The notes under the pieces are model-generated. The model was not told the origin of the DNA. It was given only the letters and a program-made list of their open reading frames with translations, and searched no databases. Source: a virus. Taken from it: 64,000 bases of DNA. Positions 48,087 to 64,000 of this stretch are shown piece by piece (within the stretch, counting starts at the first letter, position 1; every line of letters begins with the position of its first letter). Both the position numbers and the translations under genes were made by a program. The DNA lies in IMG/VR virus record IMGVR_UViG_3300025127_007327, positions 33,460 to 97,459 of that record; one strand, 5' to 3'.

Positions 48087-48896
48087 ATGATTATTAATGA
48101 AACTAGATTGAACCAAATCATACGTGAAGAGATAGAGCTTCGTATTGTTAAGGAAACAATTACTGAAGTAATATCAGAAATGCAACTTGATCTTACCGAA
48201 GAACGAAGATTAATTATTGAAAAATCACTACTTGATAGTATAAAAAGTGCGGCTAGAAAAGCAGGCGTTTCAATAAGTGTTATGGCTGCGTTGGCGTTTG
48301 GCACACAGGTTGCGTCAAATGTTCAAGAATTAGAAGGTGTTGGTACTACACCGGCCGCCGCAGAACAGTTACAAAACGCAATTGAAGCTGGTCAAAATAT
48401 ATCAGATGCACGCGCTGAATTTATTGAAGATGCCATTGCTTCTAGTAGCCGTGAAGGCGAAATTCCTGCAGATTTAGAACAAGGTGTTGGTGCTGATGAT
48501 GCTAAAGATATTGCAATGGATCGTCTTGAAGCTGAGTTTGCTTCCAGAGGTGAAATTGAAAGCACTGGCAAAATGCAACAAACCGCGCGCGGAGGAGTTT
48601 ATATTACGTATGTCCCATACGATAGTCTTCCAAAGGGATTTAAGGACACGTTTACTCGCGGTGCCGAAAAGGAAGACCTTAAACAATACTATCAGACTAT
48701 GGATATACAAGAATTAGCAGATCTTGTGAGGGATTTTAATAAGTGGGGCTCGGAAGGTCAAGGGAGTTTTTACAAGTCTGAGTCAACCGGAACAAGGCTT
48801 TTACCTTCATCTTGGTCAATTGCATATAAAGCTTGGCAAGACAAAACTGCAGAACGGGGCGCCAAAGGAAAAAGCTTAGCTAAAGAAAATGCTTGA
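48087..48896 (+). CDS. Putative internal head protein (shared-leader family)
   Basis: Leader MIINETRLNQIIREE. Confidence 0.55.
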   Translation: MIINETRLNQIIREEIELRIVKETITEVISEMQLDLTEERRLIIEKSLLDSIKSAARKAGVSISVMAALAFGTQVASNVQELEGVGTTPAAAEQLQNAIEAGQNISDARAEFIEDAIASSSREGEIPADLEQGVGADDAKDIAMDRLEAEFASRGEIESTGKMQQTARGGVYITYVPYDSLPKGFKDTFTRGAEKEDLKQYYQTMDIQELADLVRDFNKWGSEGQGSFYKSESTGTRLLPSSWSIAYKAWQDKTAERGAKGKSLAKENA

Positions 48897-48921
48897 CAGT
48901 TACACTGTGTAATGATATAGT
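48893..48921 (+). promoter_or_regulatory. Sigma70-type promoter for the sbcDC fusion
   Basis: TTGACA (48893-98), 17-bp spacer, TGn-TATAGT (48916-21); AGGAG ribosome-binding site before GTG 48943. Confidence 0.85.
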
Positions 48922-48942
48922 AAATGTTATAGGAGTGTATTT

Positions 48943-51900
48943 GTGACCATTAAGATAGCGCACGTTTCCGATATTCATGTGCGAAAATTAAAATATCATA
49001 AAGAATATCGAGCAGTATTTGAGCAGCTTTACGAAAAGCTGAGAGAAGAAAAGCCCGACATTATTGTGAACACGGGTGACACCTTTCATACAAAGCTCGA
49101 CATGTCACCAGAAGCAATTAAAATGATGAGCGAGTTGTTTGTTGGCTTAGCCGACATTGCACCTTATCATATGATTCTCGGTAATCATGATATGAATCTT
49201 AAGAATAGTGGTAGGCTTGATGCCATATCACCTATTGTTGACTACCTTGAACACCCTAATATACACTTTCATAAGTATGCATCAGTGGTAGAGGTCGCAC
49301 CCGGTATTGATCTGCACGTCTTGTCTATTGTTGACCCTGAGAATTGGCAAAAGGAATTACCTCAAGATCGTGTCAATATTGCCCTGTATCACGGCTCTGT
49401 TGTGGGCTCAGTCACAGATAGCGGCTGGATGATGACACACGGTGATATTTCTCTTGACGAGCTTGAAAAGTATGATTATGCTATGCTTGGAGATATCCAC
49501 AAGACAGATCAAAAAGTAGATAATCATGGAAGAGCCAAGTATCCCGGCTCACTAGTTCAGCAGAATCATGGAGAGTCAAATGATAAAGGCTATCTTATAT
49601 GGGATATTGAAGATAAAAATACTTGGACTACGAGACATGTTTCCCTTACGAATCCAAAGCCTTTTATCACGATTGAGCTTACTCGTAAAGGACGAATGCC
49701 AAAGAATATTTCTATTCCGTTTGGTGCTCGTTTGCGGCTCGTTAGTAATAACAATTTGCCGCTGGATACCATGAAGCGTGCGGTGGATATCGCAAAGCAT
49801 CGATTTAAGCCAGAAACAATATCATTCCTTAACCGAGCATCAGGTGAGCGAGGCTCTGTTGAATCATTGACTGATGGTTTACAAACAGAAAACTTACGGG
49901 ACATAAAAGTACAAGAAGAATTAATTGATGAATATCTGGTTGATTATGAAGTACCAGAAAAGACGCTTGAGAAAGTTTACGAACTAAATAAGAAGTATAA
50001 TAAAATTGTTGAGGACAATGAAGATGTATCGCGGAATATTAACTGGAAACTTGTTGACTTTGAGTTTGACAATCTGTTTAATTACGGGGATGGTAATAAT
50101 GTTAGCTTTGAAGAGCTAAGTGGCATTATTGGAATCTTTGGTAAAAACTTTTCTGGTAAAAGCAGTATTATTGATGGTATCCTGTGGACACTATTCAATA
50201 CAACATCCAAGAACGAACGAAAGAACTTGAATGTTATTAATCAAAATAAAGAGTTTTGTCGAGGTAAGGTAAAAATACAGATTGGTGATAAAACGTACAC
50301 TGTTGAAAGATCGGCTAAGAAATACGTTAAAAGACTGAAAGGTGAAGAAACATTAGAAGCCAAAACTGAGTTGAACTTTGAAGTGTTTGACCCTGTAATG
50401 GGCGAAACAACTTCTTTAAATGGTCTTACTAGAACGCTAACGGACGCAAATATAAGAAAGCAGTTTGGTACACTTGATGACTTTTCAGTGTCGTCTCTGT
50501 CCTCTCAACATGGAGCACTAGCTTTTATCGATGAAGGCTCGACACGCCGTAAAGAAATCATTGCAAAGTTTTTGGACCTTGAATTGTTTGATCGTAAGTT
50601 CAAATTAGCCAAAGAAGATTCTGTTGATTTAAAGGGTGCCTTAAAAAGATTAGAAAGCAAAAACTATGATGAAGACCTTGAAACTGCGACAGCACTATTG
50701 TCTGAAGCGCGCACTGGGCTAACCGAACGTAAAGAACTGTGTGATTCACTTAAGTCTGCATTGTCAGAATTAAGAGATGTTGATTCAGAAATACAAAATA
50801 AAATCAATTCTATCCCGGCCGAAATTATTGATATTTCAACAGTTAGAAAACAAATCGCTGCTAAACAGAATCAAATCATTTCGTTGGAATCGAGAAATAA
50901 TGAAATCAATTCTGACTTGAAATTTAAACAGCAGCTTTATAAAAAAGTTAATGATTTTGTAAATGAGTTCGATTTGGAACATTATACAAAACTGCAAAAT
51001 GAAATTAACACAAAAAATAGTGAGCTTTCTGATAAAGAAAAGCAAATAGATAAGTTATCTGACGATTACGAAAACGTAATCAACAAAGAAAAACTATTAA
51101 ATAATATTCCATGCGGTACATCTTATCCTACATGCAAATTTATTAGAGACGCACATATAGCTGTGGCAAACAAAACCACAATTGAAGCCGAGCAAAACAG
51201 TGTTTTAAATTCTATTGAAGAATTAAAAAACTTAATTAATGATTTTAATCCTGATGAAGTTGACGAGCAACTTGAAAAATATCGCAACATTGAAAACAGT
51301 AAGCACGAGATATCTTCTAGTATTGCTGATATGAATCTAGAGCTTGAAAAAAATAAAAATTTGATTCATACAATCACAAATAAACTTGACGAACTACAAA
51401 CAAAGCACGACGAGTATGAGCTTAATAAAGAAGCAATTGAAAACTTAGAACTGTTGGTTGCTCAGCTTAATAAGTGTCACTATAAGATTGAACAAACAGA
51501 AAAAAGAATTAATGATTGTGATACAGCAACATTAGAGCTTGTAAAATCAGTTGGCTCATACGAACAAAAGATTGAAACAATCAAAGAACAAAAACAAGAG
51601 TATCAAGATTTGCAGACAGAGTTTGCGGCGTTTGATTTGTTTATGCAATGTATGCATCCTAACGGTATTGCTTACGATGTTATTAAGAAGAAGATACCAG
51701 TAATCAACGAAGAGATTGCGAAGGTGCTTGCTAATATTGTTGACTTTGAAGTATTCTTTGAAGCTGCAGGTAATAAGTTTGATATCAACATCAAGCATCC
51801 AAAGTATGAAGAGCGACCGATAGAGATGGCATCAGGTGCCGAGAAATCACTGTCAGCAATGGCTATCCGTTTAGCATTGTTGGGAGTTTCATCACTGCCA

Positions 51901-52101
51901 AAGTCAGACTTGTTTATCCTTGATGAGCCGGGTACAGCACTGGACGAAGATAATATGTCGGGTTTTATTCAGATTTTGGAACTAATTAAAGTGTATTTCA
52001 AGAATGTTTTGTTAATCTCACACCTTGACTCACTTAAAGATTGTGTAGATATGCAAATCGTGATTGATAAAAAAGCAGGATATGCAAAGGTTAACCAATA
52101 A
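48943..52101 (+). CDS. Fused SbcD/Mre11 nuclease - SbcC/Rad50 ATPase (gp47-gp46 fusion)
   Basis: Phosphoesterase motifs SDIH, GDTFH, GNHD and LGDIH; Walker A GKNFSGKS; long coiled coil; signature ASGAE; Walker B FILDEP; H-loop ISH. Confidence 0.93.
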   Translation: MTIKIAHVSDIHVRKLKYHKEYRAVFEQLYEKLREEKPDIIVNTGDTFHTKLDMSPEAIKMMSELFVGLADIAPYHMILGNHDMNLKNSGRLDAISPIVDYLEHPNIHFHKYASVVEVAPGIDLHVLSIVDPENWQKELPQDRVNIALYHGSVVGSVTDSGWMMTHGDISLDELEKYDYAMLGDIHKTDQKVDNHGRAKYPGSLVQQNHGESNDKGYLIWDIEDKNTWTTRHVSLTNPKPFITIELTRKGRMPKNISIPFGARLRLVSNNNLPLDTMKRAVDIAKHRFKPETISFLNRASGERGSVESLTDGLQTENLRDIKVQEELIDEYLVDYEVPEKTLEKVYELNKKYNKIVEDNEDVSRNINWKLVDFEFDNLFNYGDGNNVSFEELSGIIGIFGKNFSGKSSIIDGILWTLFNTTSKNERKNLNVINQNKEFCRGKVKIQIGDKTYTVERSAKKYVKRLKGEETLEAKTELNFEVFDPVMGETTSLNGLTRTLTDANIRKQFGTLDDFSVSSLSSQHGALAFIDEGSTRRKEIIAKFLDLELFDRKFKLAKEDSVDLKGALKRLESKNYDEDLETATALLSEARTGLTERKELCDSLKSALSELRDVDSEIQNKINSIPAEIIDISTVRKQIAAKQNQIISLESRNNEINSDLKFKQQLYKKVNDFVNEFDLEHYTKLQNEINTKNSELSDKEKQIDKLSDDYENVINKEKLLNNIPCGTSYPTCKFIRDAHIAVANKTTIEAEQNSVLNSIEELKNLINDFNPDEVDEQLEKYRNIENSKHEISSSIADMNLELEKNKNLIHTITNKLDELQTKHDEYELNKEAIENLELLVAQLNKCHYKIEQTEKRINDCDTATLELVKSVGSYEQKIETIKEQKQEYQDLQTEFAAFDLFMQCMHPNGIAYDVIKKKIPVINEEIAKVLANIVDFEVFFEAAGNKFDINIKHPKYEERPIEMASGAEKSLSAMAIRLALLGVSSLPKSDLFILDEPGTALDEDNMSGFIQILELIKVYFKNVLLISHLDSLKDCVDMQIVIDKKAGYAKVNQ
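51981..51988 (+). promoter_or_regulatory. Candidate late promoter ACTAATTA
   Basis: In the sbcDC 3' end, upstream of the cargo/tubulin/lysis cassette. Confidence 0.4.
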
Positions 52102-52352
52102 TGAGAATTACTAAACAACAACTTAAACAAATTATCATGGAAGAAATTGATAATAAAACGGAAATAACTGAAAACTCTATAGTTTCAGAAACTCTTAATT
52201 CTTTAGAATCAACTACTGATATGGTCTTATCTCTGGATGAAGAACAATTAAATGAAGTTTTGCCAGCTTTAATGCCAATAATTACCAAAGCTCTCGCAAA
52301 CCCTGCTGTGTTACAAGCTATATTGGGTGCCCTTACTGGTGGCGGTAAATAA
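52101..52352 (+). CDS. Small shared-leader protein with hydrophobic C-terminal peptide
   Basis: Leader MRITKQQLKQIIMEE. Confidence 0.6.
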   Translation: MRITKQQLKQIIMEEIDNKTEITENSIVSETLNSLESTTDMVLSLDEEQLNEVLPALMPIITKALANPAVLQAILGALTGGGK

Positions 52353-52353
52353 A

Positions 52354-52827
52354 GTGAAAATGAAAAGGTCAGAACTTAAGCAGGTCATTAAAGAAGAACT
52401 CGAAACTGCAATAGACGAGGGCTTCCTTGATAGAATGATGGGTCGCGACAAAAAGGATAAACCAAAGAGCACATTAATCTATATGCCGGGTAAATCTATT
52501 CTTGAATTCTACAAGACCGGCTACGCCAACGTGATGGGCGCAGTTGTTAAATTGTTTGCACCAAAGGGCGCCGCTCTCGATCCCAATGATTTTTCTCAAG
52601 AAACAACAATTGAATTTGAATTTGACTTTCAGCACGGTGATGAATTCCTCGAACCGCGCTCGACATACGGAAATAGAATAAGGCGAAAGATTAAAAATGC
52701 TGCTTCTAATTTCTTAATAGACGCTCCAAACAAACCCGGCGGCTTTGAAAAAATTAAAGCCGAAGATCTGGCTAATAAAATCTATCAAGATGCACAAAAC
52801 CAAGCGCTGTACGGCACAAAGGAATAA
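52354..52827 (+). CDS. Putative internal head protein (shared-leader family)
   Basis: GTG at 52354, just after the upstream stop, gives MKMKRSELKQVIKEE. Confidence 0.6.
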   Translation: MKMKRSELKQVIKEELETAIDEGFLDRMMGRDKKDKPKSTLIYMPGKSILEFYKTGYANVMGAVVKLFAPKGAALDPNDFSQETTIEFEFDFQHGDEFLEPRSTYGNRIRRKIKNAASNFLIDAPNKPGGFEKIKAEDLANKIYQDAQNQALYGTKE

Positions 52828-52830
52828 ATA

Positions 52831-53967
52831 ATGAACGACAACGATAACAATGAGTTTGATTTTCTGCCGCCCGCAGAACCACCACCCTCTTTTAATCAGG
52901 AGAAAGATCACTATCACGAAGAAGTAGATGCTGAAGATTTCGGTATGGTCGAGGATTTCGGATTACAGATGGAATACTCTGATGAAGATCTACTCCCAGA
53001 GAACACGGCTCCTTCTTCAATAAACGTTGGCTTCGTTGGTGTTGGTGGCGGCGGTAACAAGATGGCTAACGCATTTCTTGAATTAGGTTTTAATAAAACA
53101 CTGCTTGTCAATACAACAGGCAAGGACATTCCAAAAAATGTCGAAGAGGATCACGTTGTCCTTATCCCCGATTCTGATGGAATTGGTAAAAACGTAGAAT
53201 ATGGAAAAGAGGTTTTAGCACAAAATGGAGCGATTGTCGAAGATGCTCTCCGCATCAAGTTTGGGAAAGTTGATTGGTTATTCGTCCTTGCTGGTGGCGG
53301 TGGCGGTACCGGTAGTAGCGTCACTGCTCTTCATCCTGTTTTTGAGCGCTACCTTCGCTCTGTTCAAGCTGCTGGACAAGTAGTATACATTACTTCATGG
53401 CCAACCGCACAAGAGAACCTAAACCCCACTATCGCTCGTAATGCGTTGGCGCTTGCTAACGATGTGTCAAGACACCCGCACATTATTCTTGACAACGAGC
53501 GTTCTACACGATTACTTCGCGGCCGGATTGGTATGCTTGGCATGTACCCTGTCGCAAACACACAATTTGCTAAGTCTTTCGCACAAATACTAAAGCTCTC
53601 CAGTGAGGATTCACCGATTCAATCTTTTGATAGTAAAGACTTAGAAACCTGTTTAGATCAGACCGGTCGAGCCTTTGTTGGCTCTACCATGATAAAAGAT
53701 CCAAATACAGGAAAGCTTGGATCGGTGATCCTTCACAACTGCATGAATCGTTCTGCATGTCCTCCACCCAAGGGTAAGGCTGCTGCTGGTTCGTTAGTGT
53801 TGGTTGTGTCAGAAGAGATGGTAGCAGACCCGAAGGTTAGCAAGAATATTGAGTCGGCAATCGCTTATGTCGGCGGTCGATGCGAGACACTTTTCTCTGG
53901 TGTTTACGTCAGAAAGAATGTGCCCGGATTGATTGCGATACTAAGTATGAATGGATTAGCGACATAG
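52831..53967 (+). CDS. FtsZ/tubulin-superfamily GTPase
   Basis: GFVGVGGGGNK (T1), VNT, DGIGKN (T3), AGGGGGTGS (T4 signature), LDNE, and SFDSKDL (T7-like loop). Confidence 0.9.
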   Translation: MNDNDNNEFDFLPPAEPPPSFNQEKDHYHEEVDAEDFGMVEDFGLQMEYSDEDLLPENTAPSSINVGFVGVGGGGNKMANAFLELGFNKTLLVNTTGKDIPKNVEEDHVVLIPDSDGIGKNVEYGKEVLAQNGAIVEDALRIKFGKVDWLFVLAGGGGGTGSSVTALHPVFERYLRSVQAAGQVVYITSWPTAQENLNPTIARNALALANDVSRHPHIILDNERSTRLLRGRIGMLGMYPVANTQFAKSFAQILKLSSEDSPIQSFDSKDLETCLDQTGRAFVGSTMIKDPNTGKLGSVILHNCMNRSACPPPKGKAAAGSLVLVVSEEMVADPKVSKNIESAIAYVGGRCETLFSGVYVRKNVPGLIAILSMNGLAT

Positions 53968-53976
53968 GAGATTATA

Positions 53977-54393
53977 ATGGCTAGACAAAAAAACACAAAA
54001 AGAATTGACCCTCGTTACTTTTTGAACGAGACAACATATAGGGACTTAAACGAACAAGAAGCACAAGTCCTTGATATGAGCAACCCCAGAGAATTCCGTA
54101 GCGCATATGTCGCCTTGAGACAAAAGCTTGGAAGGGAACCTGTTTTAAAGAATCCCGGCGAAGTAGAATATTATCAATTGAGATCTCTTGTAAAGACCAC
54201 TAGAACCTCTACGGGAGATTACGATAATAAATTTGGATACGCGCTGGATTATTCGACGGTGCCAAATATGACGCAATCTGCATACATTGATATGATTGAA
54301 CCGGGTGATAGAGCCGCCACAGATCCAGCAGTTTGGCTAGCACAAACTTTATTAAAGAGTAGAGGTATTAACAAAGTAGAAGTTGTTGGATAG
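53977..54393 (+). CDS. Hypothetical protein, possible head protein
   Basis: AGGAG ribosome-binding site; N-terminal ...YFLNE...DLNE repeats. Confidence 0.6.
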   Translation: MARQKNTKRIDPRYFLNETTYRDLNEQEAQVLDMSNPREFRSAYVALRQKLGREPVLKNPGEVEYYQLRSLVKTTRTSTGDYDNKFGYALDYSTVPNMTQSAYIDMIEPGDRAATDPAVWLAQTLLKSRGINKVEVVG

Positions 54394-54397
54394 TAAA

Positions 54398-54697
54398 ATG
54401 ATTAATTTATTAAACAAACTTTGGAATTTTTTAGTATCAAAAACATCACATGCTATTGCAGCAACACCAGTACTTGTAGAAGATACAACAGAAGAAATCG
54501 ATCTGCGCGCCTTATTTGTGCAAGTTTGCGTAAGCAAAGGTATGGGTGATAGACCTCTAAGAGAATCAAATGCAGTAGAATTATTTCTCGAATGGTATGA
54601 TGGGGAGCCTACTCACGATGCTATACTCGCATGTATGCCTGAATTTATGGCGCAAAATAATATAGTCAACGCTAAGTTTCAAAGGTTCTTTGGATGA
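54398..54697 (+). CDS. Hypothetical protein
   Basis: ATG at 54398 follows the upstream stop; amphipathic N-terminus. Confidence 0.55.
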   Translation: MINLLNKLWNFLVSKTSHAIAATPVLVEDTTEEIDLRALFVQVCVSKGMGDRPLRESNAVELFLEWYDGEPTHDAILACMPEFMAQNNIVNAKFQRFFG

Positions 54698-55542
54698 AAA
54701 TTAGTAAATCCAATCTTAAACAAATGATCAACGAAGAAATTGAACTTTTTCGGCATGAGCAAATAATGTTGCAAGAGCAGAGGCGAATTGACTTACTGCA
54801 TAATCAAATGCGACAAGAGGTGTTATCTGAAGATTGGAAAAAAGAATTACCGCACATAGGTCTTGATGTTCTTGGTCTTATTCCCGGCATCGGTGAAGCA
54901 GCAGATTTAACAAATGCAGCATTGTATGCCAAAAAAGGAGAACATTTAATGGCTGCGTTGTCAGTTATATCAATGATTCCTGCAGTTGGAGATGCTATTG
55001 GTAAAGGCGGCAAGATAGGAGTTTATCTTAGTAAGTTTGGGGCTAAGGGTGGAACAAGAGCCGGCACCTATTTGGGCAAGCTACTCTCTAAGCAAATGCC
55101 AAAAATTACTAAAACTCTTAACGCACTTAAATCAAATAAACTGATTGGTCAATATGTTGACGACATGGCTAAAGCTGTTACAAAATATGTTGACGATGTT
55201 GGTGCTGGAGTAGCAGATAAAATTTTGCCCCAAGTCCAGAAGGCAGTCGGCGTAGCGCCAACACAAACAGTTAGTAAAAACAAGTATGTTGCGCTGGCAC
55301 AGCAAGCTCAAGGCAAAACAATAGCACGTCAAAATAGACAGAAAATAGCGCAAGACTTATCTGGTGAAGAAGAATTAGATCAAGTCGCTGAAAGATCCCT
55401 GACTAAATCAGAAAAGAAAGAAAAAGAAAAAGTTGTTAAGGGCATGAAGAAATCTAAGAAAGATTTTAAACGTCGCTATGGTGACGATGCAGAATCAGTG
55501 ATGTACGCAACTGCAACTAAAATAGCAAAAGAAAAAGGGTGA
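54694..55542 (+). CDS. Shared-leader protein with pre-toxin-TG-like domain and basic C-terminal module
   Basis: Leader MKISKSNLKQMINEE; HIGLDVLGLIPGIGEAADLTNAALY...AALSVISMIPAVGD; C-terminal ...RYGDDAESVMYATATKIAK. Confidence 0.65.
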   Translation: MKISKSNLKQMINEEIELFRHEQIMLQEQRRIDLLHNQMRQEVLSEDWKKELPHIGLDVLGLIPGIGEAADLTNAALYAKKGEHLMAALSVISMIPAVGDAIGKGGKIGVYLSKFGAKGGTRAGTYLGKLLSKQMPKITKTLNALKSNKLIGQYVDDMAKAVTKYVDDVGAGVADKILPQVQKAVGVAPTQTVSKNKYVALAQQAQGKTIARQNRQKIAQDLSGEEELDQVAERSLTKSEKKEKEKVVKGMKKSKKDFKRRYGDDAESVMYATATKIAKEKG

Positions 55543-55543
55543 G

Positions 55544-55750
55544 GTGATTGTGTCTGCAAAAGCACAAGCATTTTTAGATACATGGTTAGCAAAACTTACG
55601 TCTAGAAAACTAATGGTGTGGTTGACGGCCACAGGGCTTACCTTAGCTGGGCACGTAACTAGCGAAGACTGGGTAATTATTTCAGCAATCTATATCGGAG
55701 GTCAGACAGTTATTGATGGCATCGCTAGATTGCGAGGTTATAATGACTAA
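55544..55750 (+). CDS. Putative holin
   Basis: 68 aa; SRK followed by two hydrophobic segments; YIGGQTVID motif. Confidence 0.65.
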   Translation: MIVSAKAQAFLDTWLAKLTSRKLMVWLTATGLTLAGHVTSEDWVIISAIYIGGQTVIDGIARLRGYND

Positions 55751-56126
55751 AAAGCTTATACTTGAATTTGCTTTGAAAAACTGGAAAACAATAACCATAG
55801 TGTTTTTATGTCTTGCTTTGGCTTTAAAAAGTCGATATGACTATCATCTTATGCAAAAGGCATATCAAATTCAGTCTGATTCAGTTCAAGCTCAGATTGA
55901 AGGTTTAAAAGAAATTCACAAACAAGAAATACAAAAGAAGCAATTACTCATGGAAAGTCATTTAGAATCTATTGCTGTTATTGAGCAAGAGTACGAAGAT
56001 GCACGTAAAGAACTAGAAGAGCTTAAATTAAATAAAACAAAAGAGTATACTAGAAAATATAGAGATGATAAGCAACAGCTTATTAAGGATATAGAAAACA
56101 AATTCGGAGTCGAATATGTTCCTTAG
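55743..56126 (+). CDS. Putative i-spanin (Rz-like)
   Basis: N-terminal transmembrane segment followed by coiled coil, directly after the holin. ATG 55743 is the more likely start than 55713. Confidence 0.55.
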   Translation: MTKKLILEFALKNWKTITIVFLCLALALKSRYDYHLMQKAYQIQSDSVQAQIEGLKEIHKQEIQKKQLLMESHLESIAVIEQEYEDARKELEELKLNKTKEYTRKYRDDKQQLIKDIENKFGVEYVP

Positions 56127-56535
56127 TTTATTGTTAATGTTAACATCAACTGTTTATGCGACTGAGCCACCAAAGTTTACAATACTTGAATACAAGGCAC
56201 CAGCACCCTTCGAGGGTGTTTTGTTTGACGAGAACGCAATGTCAAAGATCTTATCTGAGTATGATATTGCTTTGTACGCATGTGAAATAAGAACTGATTA
56301 TCAACTTAAAATACTCCGAGAAGAATATGAATACAAATTAGAAAATATTAAAATTGAACACGATTCCTTGACTAGAGAATACGATTTATTTATAATGCAA
56401 AAAGATAAAGAAATACAAGCTTTATCTAGCTCTTTGAAAAAAACTTCTCCGCAATATAAATGGTTGTGGTTTATTGGTGGCGTTGCACTTGGTGGTGCTA
56501 GTTATTATGCAATCGACAAGGAACTATCAAAATGA
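56116..56535 (+). CDS. Putative spanin partner: signal peptide, coiled coil and C-terminal TM
   Basis: Signal-like MFLSLLLMLTSTVYA, PAPFEGVL, coiled coil, then WLWFIGGVALGGASYYA. Confidence 0.5.
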   Translation: MFLSLLLMLTSTVYATEPPKFTILEYKAPAPFEGVLFDENAMSKILSEYDIALYACEIRTDYQLKILREEYEYKLENIKIEHDSLTREYDLFIMQKDKEIQALSSSLKKTSPQYKWLWFIGGVALGGASYYAIDKELSK

Positions 56536-57080
56536 AACACGCTAACTTACCACATCACTTTTATGTATGGGTCAACAATTCTTACTTGGGCCCAAACATG
56601 CCGGAAGGTTATACCTACGCTTTATGGCATGGTATACATTCTAGAGAGGGTCAGATTCCAATGGCACATGTCTTATTAGAGTCAGGCGCTCACTGGTCAG
56701 GCTTGCCTTTGCATGCAATGTCAGACTTTCACGGACCTGAATCGTGGGAAGAAAAACCATATTTAGATTTGTGTCCTTGGGCTGCTATGGGTCCAGATAT
56801 CGAAGCTTATGGCGCAAAGTATCTTGAAGGTCTTGAAGTCGAATTATTTAGATTTGGTTGGAAAGGCAGACACACAGGTATTATGATTGATTGGACAAAT
56901 GGCTTTGACCGCTATCCACAAGAGCATAAACCTTTGAACCTTGTATCGCTTGATGATGGACAGTTCGCCCTGCAGCCAAACAATTATTGCAGATTCAGAG
57001 ACGATCATCTTGTCAATAAAGATAAATTCAAAGAAACTAAAAATTACCGACGCGGCGAAGATGTTTGGTGGGGTGTATGA
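56532..57080 (+). CDS. Conserved hypothetical phage protein
   Basis: LESGAHWSGLPLHA...EHK...GQFALQPNN motifs; function unknown. Confidence 0.65.
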   Translation: MKHANLPHHFYVWVNNSYLGPNMPEGYTYALWHGIHSREGQIPMAHVLLESGAHWSGLPLHAMSDFHGPESWEEKPYLDLCPWAAMGPDIEAYGAKYLEGLEVELFRFGWKGRHTGIMIDWTNGFDRYPQEHKPLNLVSLDDGQFALQPNNYCRFRDDHLVNKDKFKETKNYRRGEDVWWGV

Positions 57081-57466
57081 GCGAAAAAGATTTTGATAAA
57101 ATCGCATCTATCGAAAAAGCGATTAAAGAAAAGTATGGAGAAGAAGCAATTGCCAATCCACATGCTGGCTGGGATGAAGAAAAAGAAAAATTATATCTTA
57201 ACCAGATGAAAGAAATGTACGATAAGATTAAAAGAAATGAAGAGTACGTTGAGAAAATTGATATAAATGGTATAAAGGTTTCAAAAAAACTACTTAATAG
57301 AGAACATTTACGTTCTTGCCCGGTTTGTTCTTCATTCCCAAGTGGTGTTAAAGATGATGTTTGTATAACAAAATTTAAATGTTGTCACAAATGTTATATT
57401 CAATACGTTGATGGAAGAGAAGAAAGATGGGAGCAAGGATGGCGACCACAAATTAAAAAAGGATAA
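57077..57466 (+). CDS. Zn-finger protein upstream of the terminase
   Basis: CPVC...C...CCHKC and C-terminal WEQGWRP; ATGA overlap at 57077. Confidence 0.65.
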   Translation: MSEKDFDKIASIEKAIKEKYGEEAIANPHAGWDEEKEKLYLNQMKEMYDKIKRNEEYVEKIDINGIKVSKKLLNREHLRSCPVCSSFPSGVKDDVCITKFKCCHKCYIQYVDGREERWEQGWRPQIKKG

Positions 57467-57471
57467 TTATA

Positions 57472-58020
57472 ATGGCTACAGTTTACGAAATCGTTCAGGG
57501 CTTGTCACAAGCAGCAGCTAACGCTTATGATGGCGCCCTTGATGAAAATGGGGAACCACTCTTGGTTGGATTGCAAAGAGAGGAGGGAGATCCCATTTTA
57601 GACAAAAGAGTTATGGATGGATTTAATGTCCGCTTTAGTGGAAACATGATGACTCTTTCCTACATGTCAGAAGTGCAATTAAAGGAAGTTTATGCTAGCG
57701 GTTTTGAAACAAGAGTTGAAGAACAGATTGCTGAAATAGCTGCTTTCCTTAAAAAAGAATATCGAAAGATTCGTGGTGAATCAGTTGCTCTTACTAAAGA
57801 AGGAGAGTTGGATGTGCGTGTCGAAAACTCCACTAGAGTGCGCTCATGGGTAACAGCCGTTTGCAATTATAGAGTTGGTGGTCTTAATGAAGATATGGCA
57901 GTAGCTGCTGAAGCCGACACTAAACCTGAAGATAGCTTTAGAAAGTTTATTGATCAAGGTGGCTGGACTGGCGATGGCGGAAAGCGTCCACAAAACGATA
58001 CCAGAAAAAAGGAATCGTAA
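57472..58020 (+). CDS. Hypothetical protein (head module)
   Basis: AAGGA ribosome-binding site; ACTACTTA motif upstream. Confidence 0.65.
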   Translation: MATVYEIVQGLSQAAANAYDGALDENGEPLLVGLQREEGDPILDKRVMDGFNVRFSGNMMTLSYMSEVQLKEVYASGFETRVEEQIAEIAAFLKKEYRKIRGESVALTKEGELDVRVENSTRVRSWVTAVCNYRVGGLNEDMAVAAEADTKPEDSFRKFIDQGGWTGDGGKRPQNDTRKKES

Positions 58021-58021
58021 A

Positions 58022-58483
58022 ATGAAAATCACCGAAGATCAATTAAGACGCATTATAGTTGAAGAATATATTAAAGAAGAAAATTTGGATGAGTATAGCG
58101 AGGAAGCTGAAAAGCTCATTAAGAAAATGGTTGGCGACAAAGAGTACGCACGTCGAAGAGCTTTAGAAAATCCAAAAACCTCTGAGCCCTCTGACACTGC
58201 ACCAATGGAAAAGCCACATTCTGATTCCGATGATGATGTCGTTATGTCTGGTAATATTGAAGATGCAATTTATGATATGGTCAAAGGTGCTGATACAGGC
58301 GAAGTAGCAGAAATCTTTAATGCTGTGTTTTCGCGTTTTGAACCTGAAGCGGCCGAAGAAATTATGACTTCCTTGTACGGTGGCAAAGAAATGGATGCAA
58401 GACAGCAGCAAGGTAGACAAGTTGGGTTCAAGCTTGAAGAACTCAAATTTTTAATTAAAAAAGTTTTAGCTGAGAGTGTATGA
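58022..58483 (+). CDS. Putative internal head/scaffold-associated protein (shared-leader family)
   Basis: ATG 58022 gives MKITEDQLRRIIVEE; a leader-like helix also occurs at the C-terminus. Confidence 0.6.
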   Translation: MKITEDQLRRIIVEEYIKEENLDEYSEEAEKLIKKMVGDKEYARRRALENPKTSEPSDTAPMEKPHSDSDDDVVMSGNIEDAIYDMVKGADTGEVAEIFNAVFSRFEPEAAEEIMTSLYGGKEMDARQQQGRQVGFKLEELKFLIKKVLAESV

Positions 58484-60063
58484 GCTTTGAACTCACCAAA
58501 AAACAAAAAGTTCAAGAAATCTTAAAGTGCGGAGCAGACCCTGCTTACTTCTTAAGAAACTATGCCCGTATATCTCACCCGATGCACGGGCTTATACTTT
58601 TTAATACTTATGACTTTCAGGACGTATTGCTGAATGATTTTAATGATCACAGATTTAATGTAATTTTAAAAGCAAGACAGTTGGGTATTTCAACGATTAC
58701 AGCCGGGTATATTTCTTGGTTAATGCTGTTCCACAAAGACAAGTCTATTCTTGTTATGGCAACAAAATTCGCCACAGCAGGAAACCTTGTAAAGAAAGTC
58801 AAAAGTATTATGAAGAACCTTCCAGAGTGGATTCGTATTGCTACTATCTCGGTTGATAACAGAACATCTTTTGAGTTGTCAAATGGCTCAACAATTAAGG
58901 CAGCATCTACATCTGGGGATGCTGGTCGTTCTGAAGCACTGTCACTGTTGGTGCTTGATGAGGCTGCACATATTGAGGGCTTAGAAGAGTTGTGGACTGG
59001 TCTGTATCCTACACTGTCTACTGGTGGTCGCTGTATTGCACTATCTACTCCTAACGGTGTTGGAAATTGGTTTCATAAAACTTGCGCTGATGCCGAATCG
59101 GGAGCAAACAACTTTAATCTAACAACGTTACCGTGGGACGTGCATCCTGATAGAGATGAAGAATGGTACAAAAAAGAAACTAGAAACATGTCCAAGCGTC
59201 AGATTGCACAAGAGCTTGAGTGTAACTTCAACACATCTGGCGAAACTGTAATTGATCCTGACTGTATGGAATGGCTTTTATCAAATGTACGTGAACCGAA
59301 ATACAGAACAGGATTTGACAGAAATATTTGGATGTGGGAAGAGTACGATCCATCTTGTAACTATCTGATGGTAGCTGATGTAGCCAGAGGCGATGGTGCT
59401 GACTACTCTACATTTCACATTGTAAAACTTGAGACACTAGAAGTTGTGGTAGAATATCAAGGAAAACCAACTCTTGATATGTACGCGAATGTGCTCAATC
59501 AAGTTGGTAGAGAATTTGGAGAGTGCTTATTGGTTGTCGAAAACAACAATGTTGGATATTCAGTATTGGATAAACTTTTAGAGATGGAATATCCTAATTT
59601 GTATCATTCGATAAAGTCAACCCATGAATATATTGATCAGTATATGGCTGAAAGTATGAATTCTGCAGTGCCCGGTTTTACCACTTCTATGAAGACTAGA
59701 CCTCTTATCATAGCGAAATTAGAAGAGTTTATCAGAAATAAACTAATTACGGTATATTCATCTCGCACTATAAGTGAAATGAAGACTTTTATTTGGAGGA
59801 ACGGTAAACCACAAGCAATGAAAGGCTACCATGATGATTTAATTATGGCGTTGGCAATTGCATGTTGGGTTAGGGATACAGCACTTCAGGCTAGTGCCAG
59901 AGACTTAAACTACAAAGAAGCTTTCGCTAAAGCTGTTTATACCACAAAAACTGTTATGAATACACAAATTAAGGGTCAACACGGCTACAAAGAAAAAGAA
60001 ATATTTGATAAAATTAGTGAAGCAAAAAGCTTATACGAACAATACAAATGGATTATAAAGTGA
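58480..60063 (+). CDS. terL: Terminase large subunit (T4 gp17-like)
   Basis: LKARQLGIST (Walker A-like), LVLDEAA (Walker B), STPNG, and nuclease motifs ADVARGDGADYS and HDDLIMA. Confidence 0.96.
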   Translation: MSFELTKKQKVQEILKCGADPAYFLRNYARISHPMHGLILFNTYDFQDVLLNDFNDHRFNVILKARQLGISTITAGYISWLMLFHKDKSILVMATKFATAGNLVKKVKSIMKNLPEWIRIATISVDNRTSFELSNGSTIKAASTSGDAGRSEALSLLVLDEAAHIEGLEELWTGLYPTLSTGGRCIALSTPNGVGNWFHKTCADAESGANNFNLTTLPWDVHPDRDEEWYKKETRNMSKRQIAQELECNFNTSGETVIDPDCMEWLLSNVREPKYRTGFDRNIWMWEEYDPSCNYLMVADVARGDGADYSTFHIVKLETLEVVVEYQGKPTLDMYANVLNQVGREFGECLLVVENNNVGYSVLDKLLEMEYPNLYHSIKSTHEYIDQYMAESMNSAVPGFTTSMKTRPLIIAKLEEFIRNKLITVYSSRTISEMKTFIWRNGKPQAMKGYHDDLIMALAIACWVRDTALQASARDLNYKEAFAKAVYTTKTVMNTQIKGQHGYKEKEIFDKISEAKSLYEQYKWIIK

Positions 60064-60071
60064 GAATATAA

Positions 60072-62087
60072 ATGGCAGATAATAAGAAAAAAGGTAGAAA
60101 CCCAGCGAATCAACAATCTGAGTTGTTTAAAGCGCTTACTAGATTGTTCTCTGGTCCAATAATAAACTATAGATCGCAGTCTGGTACAAAAATTAGAAGA
60201 CAACATTTAGATAAGTATTCTTCACGTTTTCGCACCGCGTCTGGTCAGCAGTTCAAAAAAGCGCTGTCATCGCCACTTGATAATATTGCATATAATGCTA
60301 TGCAGAGCCAGCGCCGCGTTGAACGGTATGTAGACTTTGACCAAATGGAATACATGCCAGAGATTGCATCGGCACTTGATATTTATGCTGATGAGATGTC
60401 AACATATTCTGACCTAAGACCAATGCTTAACATCAAATGTGGCAACGAAGAAATTAAAGCTGTGCTACATAACCTTTATTCTAAGGTTCTTAACTTAGAG
60501 CACAATTTATTTTCTTGGGCACGGACAATGTGTAAATACGGAGATTTTTTCTTGTACTTAGATATTGATGACAACTTTGGTATTCAGTCTGTTATTTCTA
60601 TTCCTATTGGAGAAGTCGAAAGACTTGAAGGGCAAGATTCTACTAACCCTAACTATATTCAGTATCAGTGGAACTCCGCCGGTATGACATTTGAAAACTG
60701 GCAAATCGCGCACTTTAGAGTTCTTGGTAATGATAAGCACGCACCATACGGTACATCTGTTTTAGATCCTGCTCGACGTATTTTTAGGCAGCTTACGCTT
60801 GTTGAAGATGCTATGATGGCTTATCGAGTTATTCGCTCATCTGAGAGAAGATTATTTAAGATTGACGTTGGTGGTATTCCGCCAAATGATATCGAACAAT
60901 ACATGGAAAAGATTGTTACACAGCTAAAAAGACATACCGTGATTGATCAACAAACTGGTCGAGTTGATTTGCGCTATAACCCAATGAGTATTGAAGAAGA
61001 TTACTTTATTCCAGTTCGTCCCGGTTCCGTAACCGATGTTACAAACTTAGCTGGTGGACAAAACACAACTGCTGTTGAGGATGTTAAGTATCTTAGAGAC
61101 AAGCTGTTCTCCGCTCTGAAAATTCCACAGCCATACTTAGCGATGGGCGAAGGTGCGGCCGAAGATAAAACAACACTTGCTCAGAAAGATATTCGTTTTG
61201 CAAGAACTATTCAAAGGCTTCAAAGAATTCTTACTTCTGAATTAGAAAAGATTGGTATTATCCACTTGTATACTCTTGGTTTTCGTGGCGACGATCTTCT
61301 TTCGTTTGCGCTTAGCCTCAATAACCCGTCAAAGATTGCAGAGCTTCAAGAAATTGAATTTTGGAAATCTAAGTTTGATATTGCTGCTTCTGCAACAGAG
61401 GGATACTTTTCTCGACGTTGGGTTGGCGAGCATATCTTTGGTATGTCTAACGAAGAGTTTGTTCGCAATCAAAGAGAAATTTACTATGACCGCAAATATG
61501 ATGCATCACTTCAACAAGTTGCTGAAGCTGCTGCTGCCGGCGGTGCAGCCGCTGGAGGCTTAGGTGGTGACGCCCTTGGTGGAGGACTCGGAGGTGGTGA
61601 CTTAGCTGGTGCTCTGACTGGTGATACTACAACAACTCCTCCGGCCGACGATGCGGCTCAAACACCTGCTGAAATACCCGCCGCTGATGCAGGTGCTGGT
61701 GGCGCTGATGATTCAGCACTTCTTGCAGTACCGCCCGGCTCTCGAAACGATAAAGTTAGAGAATATGAAAAGAGCACTTACATTGCAAAAGATGGTACAA
61801 ATGACAAGAGAGATATGGGCGCCCGCACTCGCTCTACACATGCCTTATATAACAGAGAAAAAGGTGGTAGAGCCAATAGAGCAAAGTTTCCCGGCGCCCG
61901 TGACCTTGCTACATCACCAATTCCAAATATAGCAAATGGTATTTATGAAGAAGAAGAACCTATTTATAAATTGAAAGAGACTAATGAAGAACAAAAACTT
62001 TTTCAAGTAAACGAATCATTAGATCATTTAATTAAAAGTTTAGAAGATAAAAAAGAAATCATAACGGAGCAAAATGATGAAAACTAA
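60072..62087 (+). CDS. Portal protein (T4 gp20-like) with long C-terminal extension
   Basis: PEIASALDIYADE, YGTSVL, EDAMMAYRVIRSSERRLFKIDVG, EEDYFIP and EDVKYLRDKLFSALKIP. Confidence 0.95.
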   Translation: MADNKKKGRNPANQQSELFKALTRLFSGPIINYRSQSGTKIRRQHLDKYSSRFRTASGQQFKKALSSPLDNIAYNAMQSQRRVERYVDFDQMEYMPEIASALDIYADEMSTYSDLRPMLNIKCGNEEIKAVLHNLYSKVLNLEHNLFSWARTMCKYGDFFLYLDIDDNFGIQSVISIPIGEVERLEGQDSTNPNYIQYQWNSAGMTFENWQIAHFRVLGNDKHAPYGTSVLDPARRIFRQLTLVEDAMMAYRVIRSSERRLFKIDVGGIPPNDIEQYMEKIVTQLKRHTVIDQQTGRVDLRYNPMSIEEDYFIPVRPGSVTDVTNLAGGQNTTAVEDVKYLRDKLFSALKIPQPYLAMGEGAAEDKTTLAQKDIRFARTIQRLQRILTSELEKIGIIHLYTLGFRGDDLLSFALSLNNPSKIAELQEIEFWKSKFDIAASATEGYFSRRWVGEHIFGMSNEEFVRNQREIYYDRKYDASLQQVAEAAAAGGAAAGGLGGDALGGGLGGGDLAGALTGDTTTTPPADDAAQTPAEIPAADAGAGGADDSALLAVPPGSRNDKVREYEKSTYIAKDGTNDKRDMGARTRSTHALYNREKGGRANRAKFPGARDLATSPIPNIANGIYEEEEPIYKLKETNEEQKLFQVNESLDHLIKSLEDKKEIITEQNDEN

Positions 62088-62889
62088 ATATAACAAAAAA
62101 AGAAATACTGCTTTTGTTTACGAGGCGTTGATTAGAGAAGGAACGTCCGCAATTTTACAAGGTGACCACGATAGAAAAAATACCGTTGTCAAATTGATTA
62201 AAAAACATTTTGCACCTGATTCCATACTTTATAAAGATTTACAGTGTTATCAATCTCTTTATGAATCTCAGGGTTTAGATAAAGATATTTGTGAAAAAAT
62301 TATGAAAGAGGCGAAATTAGGACATCGTGTTTTGGATCCGCATGGTTTATTTATAAGCCAAACAGATTTGATTAAAGATGTAAATAAAGAATTAGAGCCT
62401 GCAGTGTTTAATAATTTTGTCCCAAATTACAAATCGTTAGCTAACATTCATAAAATGTTTAATTCTATGAGTAGCCCTAAAGAGTCTGTAATTTTAGAAC
62501 AAGCTGTTCTTAAGCAAATGGCTGCTTCTGCAGATTCAACAAGCGATTTTGATGTTGACAACTTAGTTGTCGAAGAGTTTGTTAAAAAGTTTAACAACAA
62601 ATACGATAGTGTTCTTTTGCAGGAGCAAAAGCAATTACTTAGCTTATACATCAGTTCCTTTGTTGATAATGCACTTGAATTTAAAATGTTTTTAAATGAA
62701 GAATTGGCACGTTTAAAAGCAGAGCTTGTAAACTCTAAAGGTAGTGAAGAAATTTCTGCTGATGATGAAATGATTAGTAAAACAAATACAATTATAGAAA
62801 AATTAGAAACCTTTTCAAAAGGTGAGGCAGATACAAACATGTTGCTCACAGTTTTAAAGGTGCAAGAACTTGTAAAGGAACTTAATTAA
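62074..62889 (+). CDS. Putative prohead core/assembly protein
   Basis: Immediately after the portal; starts KYNKKRNTAFVYEAL; helical. Confidence 0.5.
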   Translation: MMKTKYNKKRNTAFVYEALIREGTSAILQGDHDRKNTVVKLIKKHFAPDSILYKDLQCYQSLYESQGLDKDICEKIMKEAKLGHRVLDPHGLFISQTDLIKDVNKELEPAVFNNFVPNYKSLANIHKMFNSMSSPKESVILEQAVLKQMAASADSTSDFDVDNLVVEEFVKKFNNKYDSVLLQEQKQLLSLYISSFVDNALEFKMFLNEELARLKAELVNSKGSEEISADDEMISKTNTIIEKLETFSKGEADTNMLLTVLKVQELVKELN

Positions 62890-62890
62890 A

Positions 62891-63430
62891 ATGCCCGTCG
62901 TTATTCGTGTTGGTAAAAAAGCTAATGAAAAGAAAGTTAGACTTGAGCTTAACGCTCGTCAGGCGCTTAACGGCGACGTTATGATTTTTGATCATGGTGA
63001 TATTGATATTGTTTTATCGCCATCAACTAAAAAAGTAGTAGCATTTCCCAAAGAAACATTATCAGATTTAGTATATGGTGCTCAAAATAGGCTAATGACT
63101 GTGCTGATGAAAAAAGGAATTATTAAGGCTGAAAGTATTCAAGCTGGTTCTTACTTTGGAGCGCTTGAAGGTCAGATACTTGAATCAACAAACCCTGATA
63201 TAAACGGTGCTAAACTTGCTTTAATTAATATATCGCAGTTCATTGAGGAAGAAAGACCATACTTTGAAAACACTGAAGCTGTTATTTCCAAGTCTGAAAA
63301 GGACTTAGTACATCCTGATAAAGAAGACTCAACAGAACTTGGTGAAGTTCCACAGGCAACTGAGAAGGGTTCGCTTAGACACACGTATGTGAAGGACCCT
63401 TACGCATTAAACTACATGTATACTATTTGA
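62891..63430 (+). CDS. Hypothetical protein (head module)
   Basis: Tightly coupled ORF. Confidence 0.6.
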   Translation: MPVVIRVGKKANEKKVRLELNARQALNGDVMIFDHGDIDIVLSPSTKKVVAFPKETLSDLVYGAQNRLMTVLMKKGIIKAESIQAGSYFGALEGQILESTNPDINGAKLALINISQFIEEERPYFENTEAVISKSEKDLVHPDKEDSTELGEVPQATEKGSLRHTYVKDPYALNYMYTI

Positions 63431-63437
63431 GGAATTA

Positions 63438-63800
63438 ATGGAACTATTAACATTTATACTGTGTGCCTACGGGCTGACACAAATTATTGTTTACGGAAAG
63501 ATTTTTAAAGATATTAGACCAACCGAAGGTAGACTTGGAGAACTATTCAGATGTCCAATGTGCATGGGATTCCATGTAGGCTGGTTTTTAATGTTACTTT
63601 CTCCGTTTACAGAACTATTTAATTTTGACGTAACTGTGGCTAATTTTTTGATCTTAGGTTGGTTATCGTCAGGAACATCATATGTTTTAAATATGATTTT
63701 TGGAGATGAAGGAATTAAGCATGAACACAAACAATCAAACCCAGACTCTTGTCACTTGGACAAACAAGTGGATGTTGCAGCCAGTGAGACGCTGCTGTAA
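63438..63800 (+). CDS. DUF1360-like membrane protein with CxxC
   Basis: Hydrophobic helices and GELFRCPMCMGFHVG; GAGGA ribosome-binding site. Confidence 0.7.
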   Translation: MELLTFILCAYGLTQIIVYGKIFKDIRPTEGRLGELFRCPMCMGFHVGWFLMLLSPFTELFNFDVTVANFLILGWLSSGTSYVLNMIFGDEGIKHEHKQSNPDSCHLDKQVDVAASETLL

Positions 63801-63810
63801 AGGGTCTTAG
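63721..63810 (+). CDS. Candidate 29-aa peptide ending RRCCKGS (overlapping ORF)
   Basis: My translation: MNTNNQTQTLVTWTNKWMLQPVRRCCKGS*. AAGGA lies upstream, and its stop is 2 nt before the next ATG. Confidence 0.45.
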   Translation: MNTNNQTQTLVTWTNKWMLQPVRRCCKGS

Positions 63811-63812
63811 CT

Positions 63813-64000
63813 ATGAACATTACTGTAGAAGAATTAAAGTCGATTATTGCTGAAGAAATTCAGTCTATGGTTGAAGATGGTACCATTGATGAGAATATTT
63901 TAGATCGTCTTAAAGCTCAAACAAAAGGAATCGGTTCCGGTTTAGCCGGTGCTGCATTATCAAAACTTGGTGCTAAGGGTGCCGGCGCTGAATTAATGAG
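63813..64000 (+). CDS. Shared-leader head protein (3' partial, not in the ORF track)
   Basis: MNITVEELKSIIAEEIQSMVEDGTIDENILDRLK..., open to the window end. Confidence 0.7.
   Translation, partial: MNITVEELKSIIAEEIQSMVEDGTIDENILDRLKAQTKGIGSGLAGAALSKLGAKGAGAELM

Follow-up and report, generated by a model that had tools for sequence, protein, structure and literature searches.

Six genes between positions 48087 and 64000 of the stretch of viral DNA analysed here begin with the same peptide of about 15–22 residues, a leader that is joined in each case to a different protein. The stretch (the window, 64 kb) is the final two thirds of a linear IMG/VR contig of 97,459 bp (IMGVR_UViG_3300025127_007327). 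We hold with moderate confidence that this leader is a propeptide for capsid targeting, with a role like that of the capsid-targeting sequence (CTS) of the internal proteins of phage T4. In T4, a 10-residue tag serves to pack three internal proteins and Alt, and at least one of the internal proteins, IPI*, disarms a host restriction enzyme.

In the window the leader reads M-x-I-T-x-x-x-L-K-Q-I-I-x-E-E. The six N-termini, all on the + strand, are MIINETRLNQIIREE at 48087, MRITKQQLKQIIMEE at 52101, MKMKRSELKQVIKEE at 52354, MKISKSNLKQMINEE at 54694, MKITEDQLRRIIVEE at 58022 and MNITVEELKSIIAEE at 63813. Every one of them had been reported in a first-pass annotation of this DNA and was confirmed, the gene at 52354 starting with GTG. 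The genes are listed below together with some of their candidate protease sites, which have the form Phi-x-E (hydrophobic, any residue, Glu).

48087..48896, + strand: leader protein of 269 residues; leader at residues 1–15, matched by the hidden Markov model (HMM) described below
52101..52352, + strand: leader protein of 83 residues; sites at E14 (I-M-E) and E24 (I-T-E)
52354..52827, + strand: leader protein of 157 residues with a GTG start; sites at E14 and I-D-E22, the latter followed by GFLDRM
54694..55542, + strand: leader protein of 282 residues; Gly-rich hydrophobic middle and basic C-terminal module
58022..58483, + strand: acidic leader protein of 153 residues, in a conserved slot between a gene of 182 codons and the gene for the large terminase subunit (TerL)
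63813..64000, + strand: leader protein, 62 residues seen, the open reading frame (ORF) running off the contig end; sites at E14, M-V-E21 and I-D-E27

If translation began at an ATG at 52360 instead, the third of these proteins would have the leader in its 13-residue form. We consider the 15-residue reading reasonable, since a relative with a matching leader has an ATG where this gene has its GTG.

A seventh copy, MSVTEENLKQIVMEE, lies outside the window at contig base 557. A position-specific scoring matrix made from the copies and run over all six frames of the 97,459-bp contig scored the seven at 34–41 bits and the next best match at about 10. An HMM trained on 163 leaders, mostly from other contigs, found the same seven at 21.6–31.7 bits, with the next best match in six frames at 6.7 bits. 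All seven matches begin on the start codon of a + strand gene, and none of the other ~100 ORFs of the contig carries the motif. A chance origin of the copies is excluded. Where two leaders share a residue, the codons often differ (56 of 137 identical residues, or 41%), and mean nucleotide identity is 62%. Selection therefore acts on the leader peptide, and the same codon differences led us to reject a recent duplication of the leaders at the DNA level.

The proteins behind the leaders are unrelated, as had been claimed. When residues 1–23 were removed from the seven proteins and the remaining bodies were compared with one another by BLASTP, there was no significant similarity; the best pair consisted of a 14-residue Gly-rich stretch (E 0.017). 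Searches of the seven cargo proteins against Pfam and PHROGs gave no informative family, and ESM Atlas searches returned viral hypothetical clusters only, with scores below 0.9.

The cargo also turns over quickly. In relatives with TerL and tubulin 90–95% identical to those of the window, three window leader genes match in the leader only. This is the case for 52101 and 52354, which stand between an SbcD-SbcC fusion gene and a tubulin/FtsZ-like gene. The start codon of 52101 overlaps the SbcD-SbcC stop, and in the closest relatives its leader alone matches, over 16–21 residues; matches to 52354 are confined to its first 23–30 residues. At 58022 the conserved slot has positional homologues upstream of TerL in nine relatives, with 28–51% identity, and the length of its occupant varies across relatives from ~75 to 312 residues. 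The gene at 63813 has an orthologue of 153 residues (50% identity) in one relative locus (L045), located between a 120-codon gene and the gene for a protease of family S77. In the 54694 protein, the basic C-terminal module is common to the largest cargo cluster (12 members), and residues 242–280 match phrog_12788 (E 8e-8). A candidate Pre-toxin TG domain (PT-TG, PF14449) in this protein was rejected, there being no Pfam match even at E up to 10; its sole trace was a feature similarity of 0.77 in the ESM Atlas.

The 48087 protein belongs to a more stable family. Its homologues, in more than 141 clusters from marine metagenomes (largely Tara and other ocean datasets), are 59–97% identical, and the leader is kept in all of them. 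After its candidate cleavage sites the protein has a hydrophobic segment and a conserved C-terminal domain. It had no match in Pfam or PHROGs; an AlphaFold2 model of the family reached a mediocre mean predicted local distance difference test score (61.7), and with it Foldseek matched nothing in the PDB at E ≤0.001.

To find leaders elsewhere in IMG/VR, we scanned it with a degenerate DNA pattern consisting of ATG, a gap of 4–6 codons and L-K-Q-I-I-x-E-E, with all synonymous codons allowed. The pattern was present in at least 120 contigs. Among the pattern matches listed, the spacing was 15 or 13 codons in 163 of 168, and positions that the pattern left free were conserved as well (n = 131: K2 in 120, T4 in 110, K5 in 102, L or I at 16 in 106). 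The consensus of the leader is MKITKSQLKQIIKEEL..VL.E, with E14 invariant and L8, I11, I12 and E15 each at least 90% conserved. The HMM scan of the genome and its relatives that had been suggested in the first-pass annotation gave, besides the seven copies on the contig, 244 matches of at least 12 bits in 1.05 Mb of relatives' DNA, 233 of them on a start codon. A relative locus has up to seven matches, tandem arrays reach five leader genes, and two complete relatives have three and five. The other 11 matches are internal or C-terminal; a few proteins have leader-like helices at the C-terminus (L032:5442, L031:11976, L110:2883(-) and L049:6414(-)).

The cargo of the relatives is very diverse. 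The 216 bodies of at least 30 residues fell into 182 BLASTP clusters (E 1e-3), of which 167 were singletons, and body lengths run from ~20 to more than 400 residues. A Pfam domain was found in about 6 of 148 leader proteins: pentapeptide repeat, GNAT acetyltransferase, FliG_C, DUF6321 and DUF3008. A leader of the kind found on ribosomally synthesized and post-translationally modified peptides was considered and set aside, since the bodies have the length and character of proteins and ordinary enzyme domains occur in a few of them. When a short leader protein was compared by tblastn with 50,697 isolate phage records there was no match at E up to 10. The leader region was also compared with 5.8 billion proteins by a word-indexed search; of the 1,551 candidates, 10 were significant, which is no usable count because the motif is too short for a database of this size. 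Literature searches that covered the motif string and marine T4-like propeptides turned up no description of this motif.

The contig carries a second shared leader, MKLLLENWR-x-Y-L-x-E. It begins four adjacent, otherwise different genes outside the window (contig bases 2835, 3259, 3630 and 3977) and likewise ends in a hydrophobic-x-Glu motif. We saw it seven times in the relatives' loci (e.g. L026:6169, L112:5724(-) and L039:11081), in some cases within the head module.

What kind of phage carries these leaders? The contig has a CheckV completeness of 53%, and nearly all of its genes are on the + strand. The region with the leaders encodes a DnaG-type primase, the SbcD-SbcC fusion, the tubulin/FtsZ-like protein, a T4-type TerL and a gp20-type portal protein. 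From TerL onwards the window contains the following genes.

58480..60063, + strand: TerL of T4 type (PF03237, E 7.6e-8)
60072..62087, + strand: portal protein of T4 gp20 type (PF07230, E 4.6e-75)
62074..63800, + strand: three conserved head-module genes for proteins of 271, 179 and 120 residues; in relatives, located between the portal gene and the slot of leader genes and prohead protease

The three head-module genes gave no informative Pfam or PHROG family, and megablast of the window region against isolates found no match. By TerL, the best isolate is Flavobacterium phage immuto (48% identity); next come a Microcystis phage and T4-like cyanophages. Three immuto proteins (gp080, gp094 and gp095) bear the leader in its 13-residue form, and immuto gp072 is encoded between portal and protease. 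Because of these nearest isolates, the gp20-type portal and the T4-type TerL, we place the phage as an uncultured, distant member of the T4-like myoviruses.

Several features of this region are worth recording in their own right. The window TerL begins MSFELTKKQKVQEILKC, and immuto-like TerL proteins start MSQ-D-I-K-Q-I-I-R-E-E-Y-L-K-C (L001:20001, immuto; G002 ~2187(-); L094:3622(-)). The tubulin/FtsZ-like gene (window 52831–53967, +) scores 32.7 bits with PF00091, the cut-off being 33; full-length matches in nine relatives are 87–95% identical, above the conservation of TerL (83–90%). SbcD (Metallophos) and SbcC (SMC/AAA_23) are fused into one protein of 1052 residues (window 48943–52101, +). 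The 120-residue protein of the head module (window 63438–63800, +) has hydrophobic segments and a CPMCMGF motif and gave a weak DUF1360 / phrog_781 match only; ~30 relatives have it too (64–86% identity), encoded in the head module after the portal-side genes and before the protease gene.

The relatives show the rest of this head module. Among the 120 leader loci listed, TerL was 83–90% identical to that of the window in 46–47 and the portal was found in 43. A Peptidase_S77 prohead protease was present in 32 of these loci, within the few kilobases fetched. In whole records it was found in all five large leader contigs, and in 27 of 42 further contigs of at least 30 kb, including all three that are at least 95% complete; the contigs without it are fragments. 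The relatives' protease is 26–33% identical to T4 gp21, with H85, S140 and D168 invariant, and an L-x-E near its N-terminus aligns with T4 L-I-E9. In the major capsid protein, the T4 gp23 site L-T-E65/A66 aligns in the relatives with L-R-E or L-K-E followed by A-S. Because this capsid maturation site is conserved, the relatives' protease very probably keeps the L/I-x-E specificity of gp21.

The head module of the relatives starts with TerL, the portal, the 271-, 179- and 120-residue proteins, zero to three leader genes, the protease and again zero to three leader genes. It continues with a conserved protein of 130–150 residues, an S21-like protein, further genes, the scaffold and the capsid protein. 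Leader genes thus fill variable slots on both sides of the protease gene. The window follows this order through the 120-residue protein, then has the leader gene 63813, and there the contig ends. A conserved small protein adjoining the protease in the relatives begins MKKSELKQLIKP, which equals the 13-residue leader through residue 11; hhalign of its residues 1–27 with the leader gave E 0.0011 and a probability of 20%. Because of this resemblance the leader may copy the N-terminus of a core component, an idea that we hold loosely. The S21-like gene, a homologue of ribosomal protein S21 (PF01165, E 4.5e-9), lies inside the head module a few genes past the protease (L045:3496-3744 (-)), and other relatives have equivalent genes.

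We then asked where such a protease might cut. On the contig, I/V-x-E14 is present in 7 of 7 leaders and a further Phi-x-E within residues 19–28 in 6 of 7. In the relatives, Phi-x-E peaks at residue 14 (12 in the short form) and again at residues 20–22 in about half of the leaders, over a background farther along of 1–8 per position; Gly after the second site is 2.8 times background. In 188 of 195 leaders E14 is followed directly by another Glu, whereas the T4 sites that we read have Ala or Ser there. E14 may therefore not be the cut site, and for the same reason the second site appears at least as likely to be cut.

The first-pass annotation had pointed to a second site in three of the window proteins, and this is partly borne out. 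In two, 52354 and 63813, it takes the form DE[GN][FIL]LD[KR], which recurs in 7 of 240 leader proteins, these two included: the seven have I-D-E, then G/N-[FIL]-L-D-[KR] and a Gly/Ala-rich stretch (in 63813, I-D-E27 is followed by NILDRLK and such a stretch). The third, 48087, has Phi-x-E sites at E14 (I-R-E), E23 (V-K-E) and E45 (I-I-E, then KSLLDSIK). The last is conserved in its orthologues; the corresponding L-[IL]-L-E45 and D50 are invariant across 25 of them and lie ahead of the hydrophobic segment. The second site is thus a real, recurrent element, at which a predicted cut would expose an amphipathic N-terminus. After I-D-E, the predicted new start is G/N-[FIL]-[LW]-D-[KR]-[IL]-K followed by a Gly/Ala/Ser/Lys-rich stretch in 52354, 63813, L085:4194, L092:2261 and L045:6573-7031(-). 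Judged by eye, these N-termini look amphipathic and are possibly membrane-active.

Put together, these observations suggest the following course of events. The leader would form an amphipathic helix that docks new proteins on the prohead scaffolding core. After shell closure, a gp21-type (Peptidase_S77) protease would remove it after a Glu in hydrophobic-x-Glu context, at E14 and/or the second site near residue 22, and farther downstream in some proteins. The freed and very diverse cargo would remain in the head with the DNA, and part of it might reach the host cell on infection. We infer all of these steps, from docking through cleavage and packaging to ejection; that cargo is ejected to act as effectors in the host is less certain than capsid targeting, and the effector delivery put forward in the first-pass annotation is argued by analogy only.

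The capsid-targeting reading is supported by the specificity of the leader, its portability, the T4-like lineage with its S77 protease, the capsid maturation site, the position of the genes, the geometry of the motif, the second Phi-x-E peak and the likeness to the start of the small protein beside the protease. Rapid cargo turnover also counts for it, because the internal proteins of T-even phages have been described likewise, as highly diverse defence proteins with only the tag in common (PMC3012670). The proposal of a portable capsid-loading tag, already made in the first-pass annotation, is partly supported: it gains from the lineage, the relatives' gp21-type protease, the L-x-E/A site, the clustering of the genes and the residue spacing, and it loses by the lack of detectable homology to the T4 tag, the Glu after E14, the gene in the slot just before TerL and the gene among replication genes.

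These and further points weigh against it. The leader HMM did not match the N-termini of T4 IPII, IPIII, gp22 or gp24. The gene at 48087 is conserved at 67–75% in the closest relatives, like the adjoining replication genes, and 58022 occupies the position expected for a small terminase, a protein that neither Pfam nor PHROGs recognised. Cargo isoelectric points are mixed (57% acidic, 33% basic). The immuto-like TerL opens with a weak leader-like helix (11 bits). A candidate late-promoter motif, ACTANTTA, is not enriched 5' of leader genes (23 of 233, vs 81 of 1068). The contig, a 53%-complete fragment that ends just before the expected position, has no S77 protease or capsid gene, and it is this incompleteness that accounts for their absence. 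Since every carrier seen is T4-like, the co-occurrence of leader and protease cannot be separated from common descent. There is no cultured close relative, the top isolate TerL match being 48%, and we found neither virion proteomics nor N-terminal data for a carrier.

Could the leader instead be a docking helix for some other shared partner, such as a phage or host chaperone, the membrane, the phage tubulin or a host complex? The motif that ends in Glu would then be merely part of an amphipathic helix. Several leader genes do stand amid replication genes or beside the tubulin gene, and the unenriched promoter motif gives no sign of late timing. The Glu after E14, atypical for T4 sites, fits this explanation too, as do the 11 internal or C-terminal matches among the 244. 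However, five leader genes are present in G045, a complete and more distant relative of 185.5 kb in which there was no tubulin match, and we rejected a role of the leader as a tubulin adaptor on this ground. Leader genes concentrate in the variable slots that flank the prohead protease gene, and a conserved protein of the head module has an N-terminus that the leader resembles. Scattered genes and a C-terminal address are moreover compatible with capsid targeting, since the internal protein genes of T4 are scattered over its genome and the Alt propeptide is C-terminal (PMC9026906). We regard a docking helix of this kind as unlikely.

Less plausible still, and in our judgement improbable, is a fast-diverging paralogous family of which the N-terminal helix would be the last conserved piece, with no address function. 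Most bodies are small orphans without known domains, and the tandem arrays of up to five genes suggest duplication. Yet the bodies range in length from ~20 to more than 400 residues; they include unrelated Pfam folds (pentapeptide repeat, GNAT, FliG_C), 167 of the 182 clusters are singletons at E 1e-3, and the leader stays near-invariant while the rest is replaced, even where the TerL proteins of two phages are 90% identical. Conservation at the level of nucleic acid, as a translation-initiation region or as a patch of recombination homology for cassettes, is highly improbable: leaders are rich in A/T and stand at the 5' ends of their genes, and cassette exchange between close relatives is evident, but the codons of identical residues differ as described above, and the pattern-free residues K2, T4, K5 and L16 are still conserved despite the synonymous-codon pattern of the search.

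If the leader is a capsid-targeting propeptide, it marks packaged, possibly injected proteins of widespread uncultured marine phages in any metagenome, hundreds of orphan genes become a defined functional class, and the head-loading principle of T4 is shown to reach beyond the T-even phages. If the cargo is also injected, the leader becomes a sequence handle for anti-defence and host-takeover proteins in metagenomes. A bolder version, which we offer tentatively and think rather doubtful, is that in an abundant group of marine T4-like phages this leader and at least one other (MKLLLENWR) load hundreds of unrelated, rapidly exchanged protein families into the capsid, that these are injected with the DNA, and that a subset is cleaved to a new amphipathic, Gly/Ala-rich N-terminus of the GFLDKIKG... 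type, which might act on membranes.

How does the leader compare with known systems? The T4 N-termini that we read from NC_000866 are MKTYQEFIAE/A in IPII and IPIII, MAKINELLRE/S in gp24 and MLKEQLIAEA in gp22. The first ten residues of the T4 tag are enough to package foreign proteins, residues 4 and 7 have been mapped to targeting and 8 and 10 to processing, and the specificity of gp21 is L/I-x-E (PMC9026906). L8, I11, I12 and E14 of the leader have the spacing of Y4, F7, I8 and E10 of the CTS that gp21 removes from IPII and IPIII. Like this CTS and the gp24 propeptide, the leader lies at the extreme N-terminus, contains Phi-x-x-Phi-Phi-x-E and ends in the gp21 motif L/I-x-E. Both the CTS and the leader sit on unrelated, fast-evolving small proteins whose genes are scattered. 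Relatives that carry the leader have, as T4 does, a protease of the gp21 family, a portal of gp20 type and a capsid protein of gp23 type. What the two share is the spacing of conserved residues, with no detectable sequence homology, and their likeness would thus reflect functional analogy or a homology too old to detect. The leader is four residues longer than the CTS (two in the 13-residue form). Unlike the CTS, it usually has a second Phi-x-E near residue 22 and has Glu, not Ala or Ser, after the first site. It also differs in scale, with at least 182 cargo clusters in the ~1 Mb sampled and 3–7 or more genes per genome.

The phiKZ-like giant phages (201phi2-1, SPN3US) offer a second comparison. 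In these, a diverged homologue of gp21 cuts many proteins of the head interior after Glu, and the propeptides contain redundant cut sites (PMC9026906). These phages are of a different lineage; their propeptides are long and have no single shared short tag, and their site is S/A-x-E, whereas the leader has a hydrophobic residue at P3. The principle of a capsid tag is established for the internal proteins of T-even phages; notable here are the different sequence of the leader, its two-site layout, its very large cargo repertoire and its abundance in marine phages.

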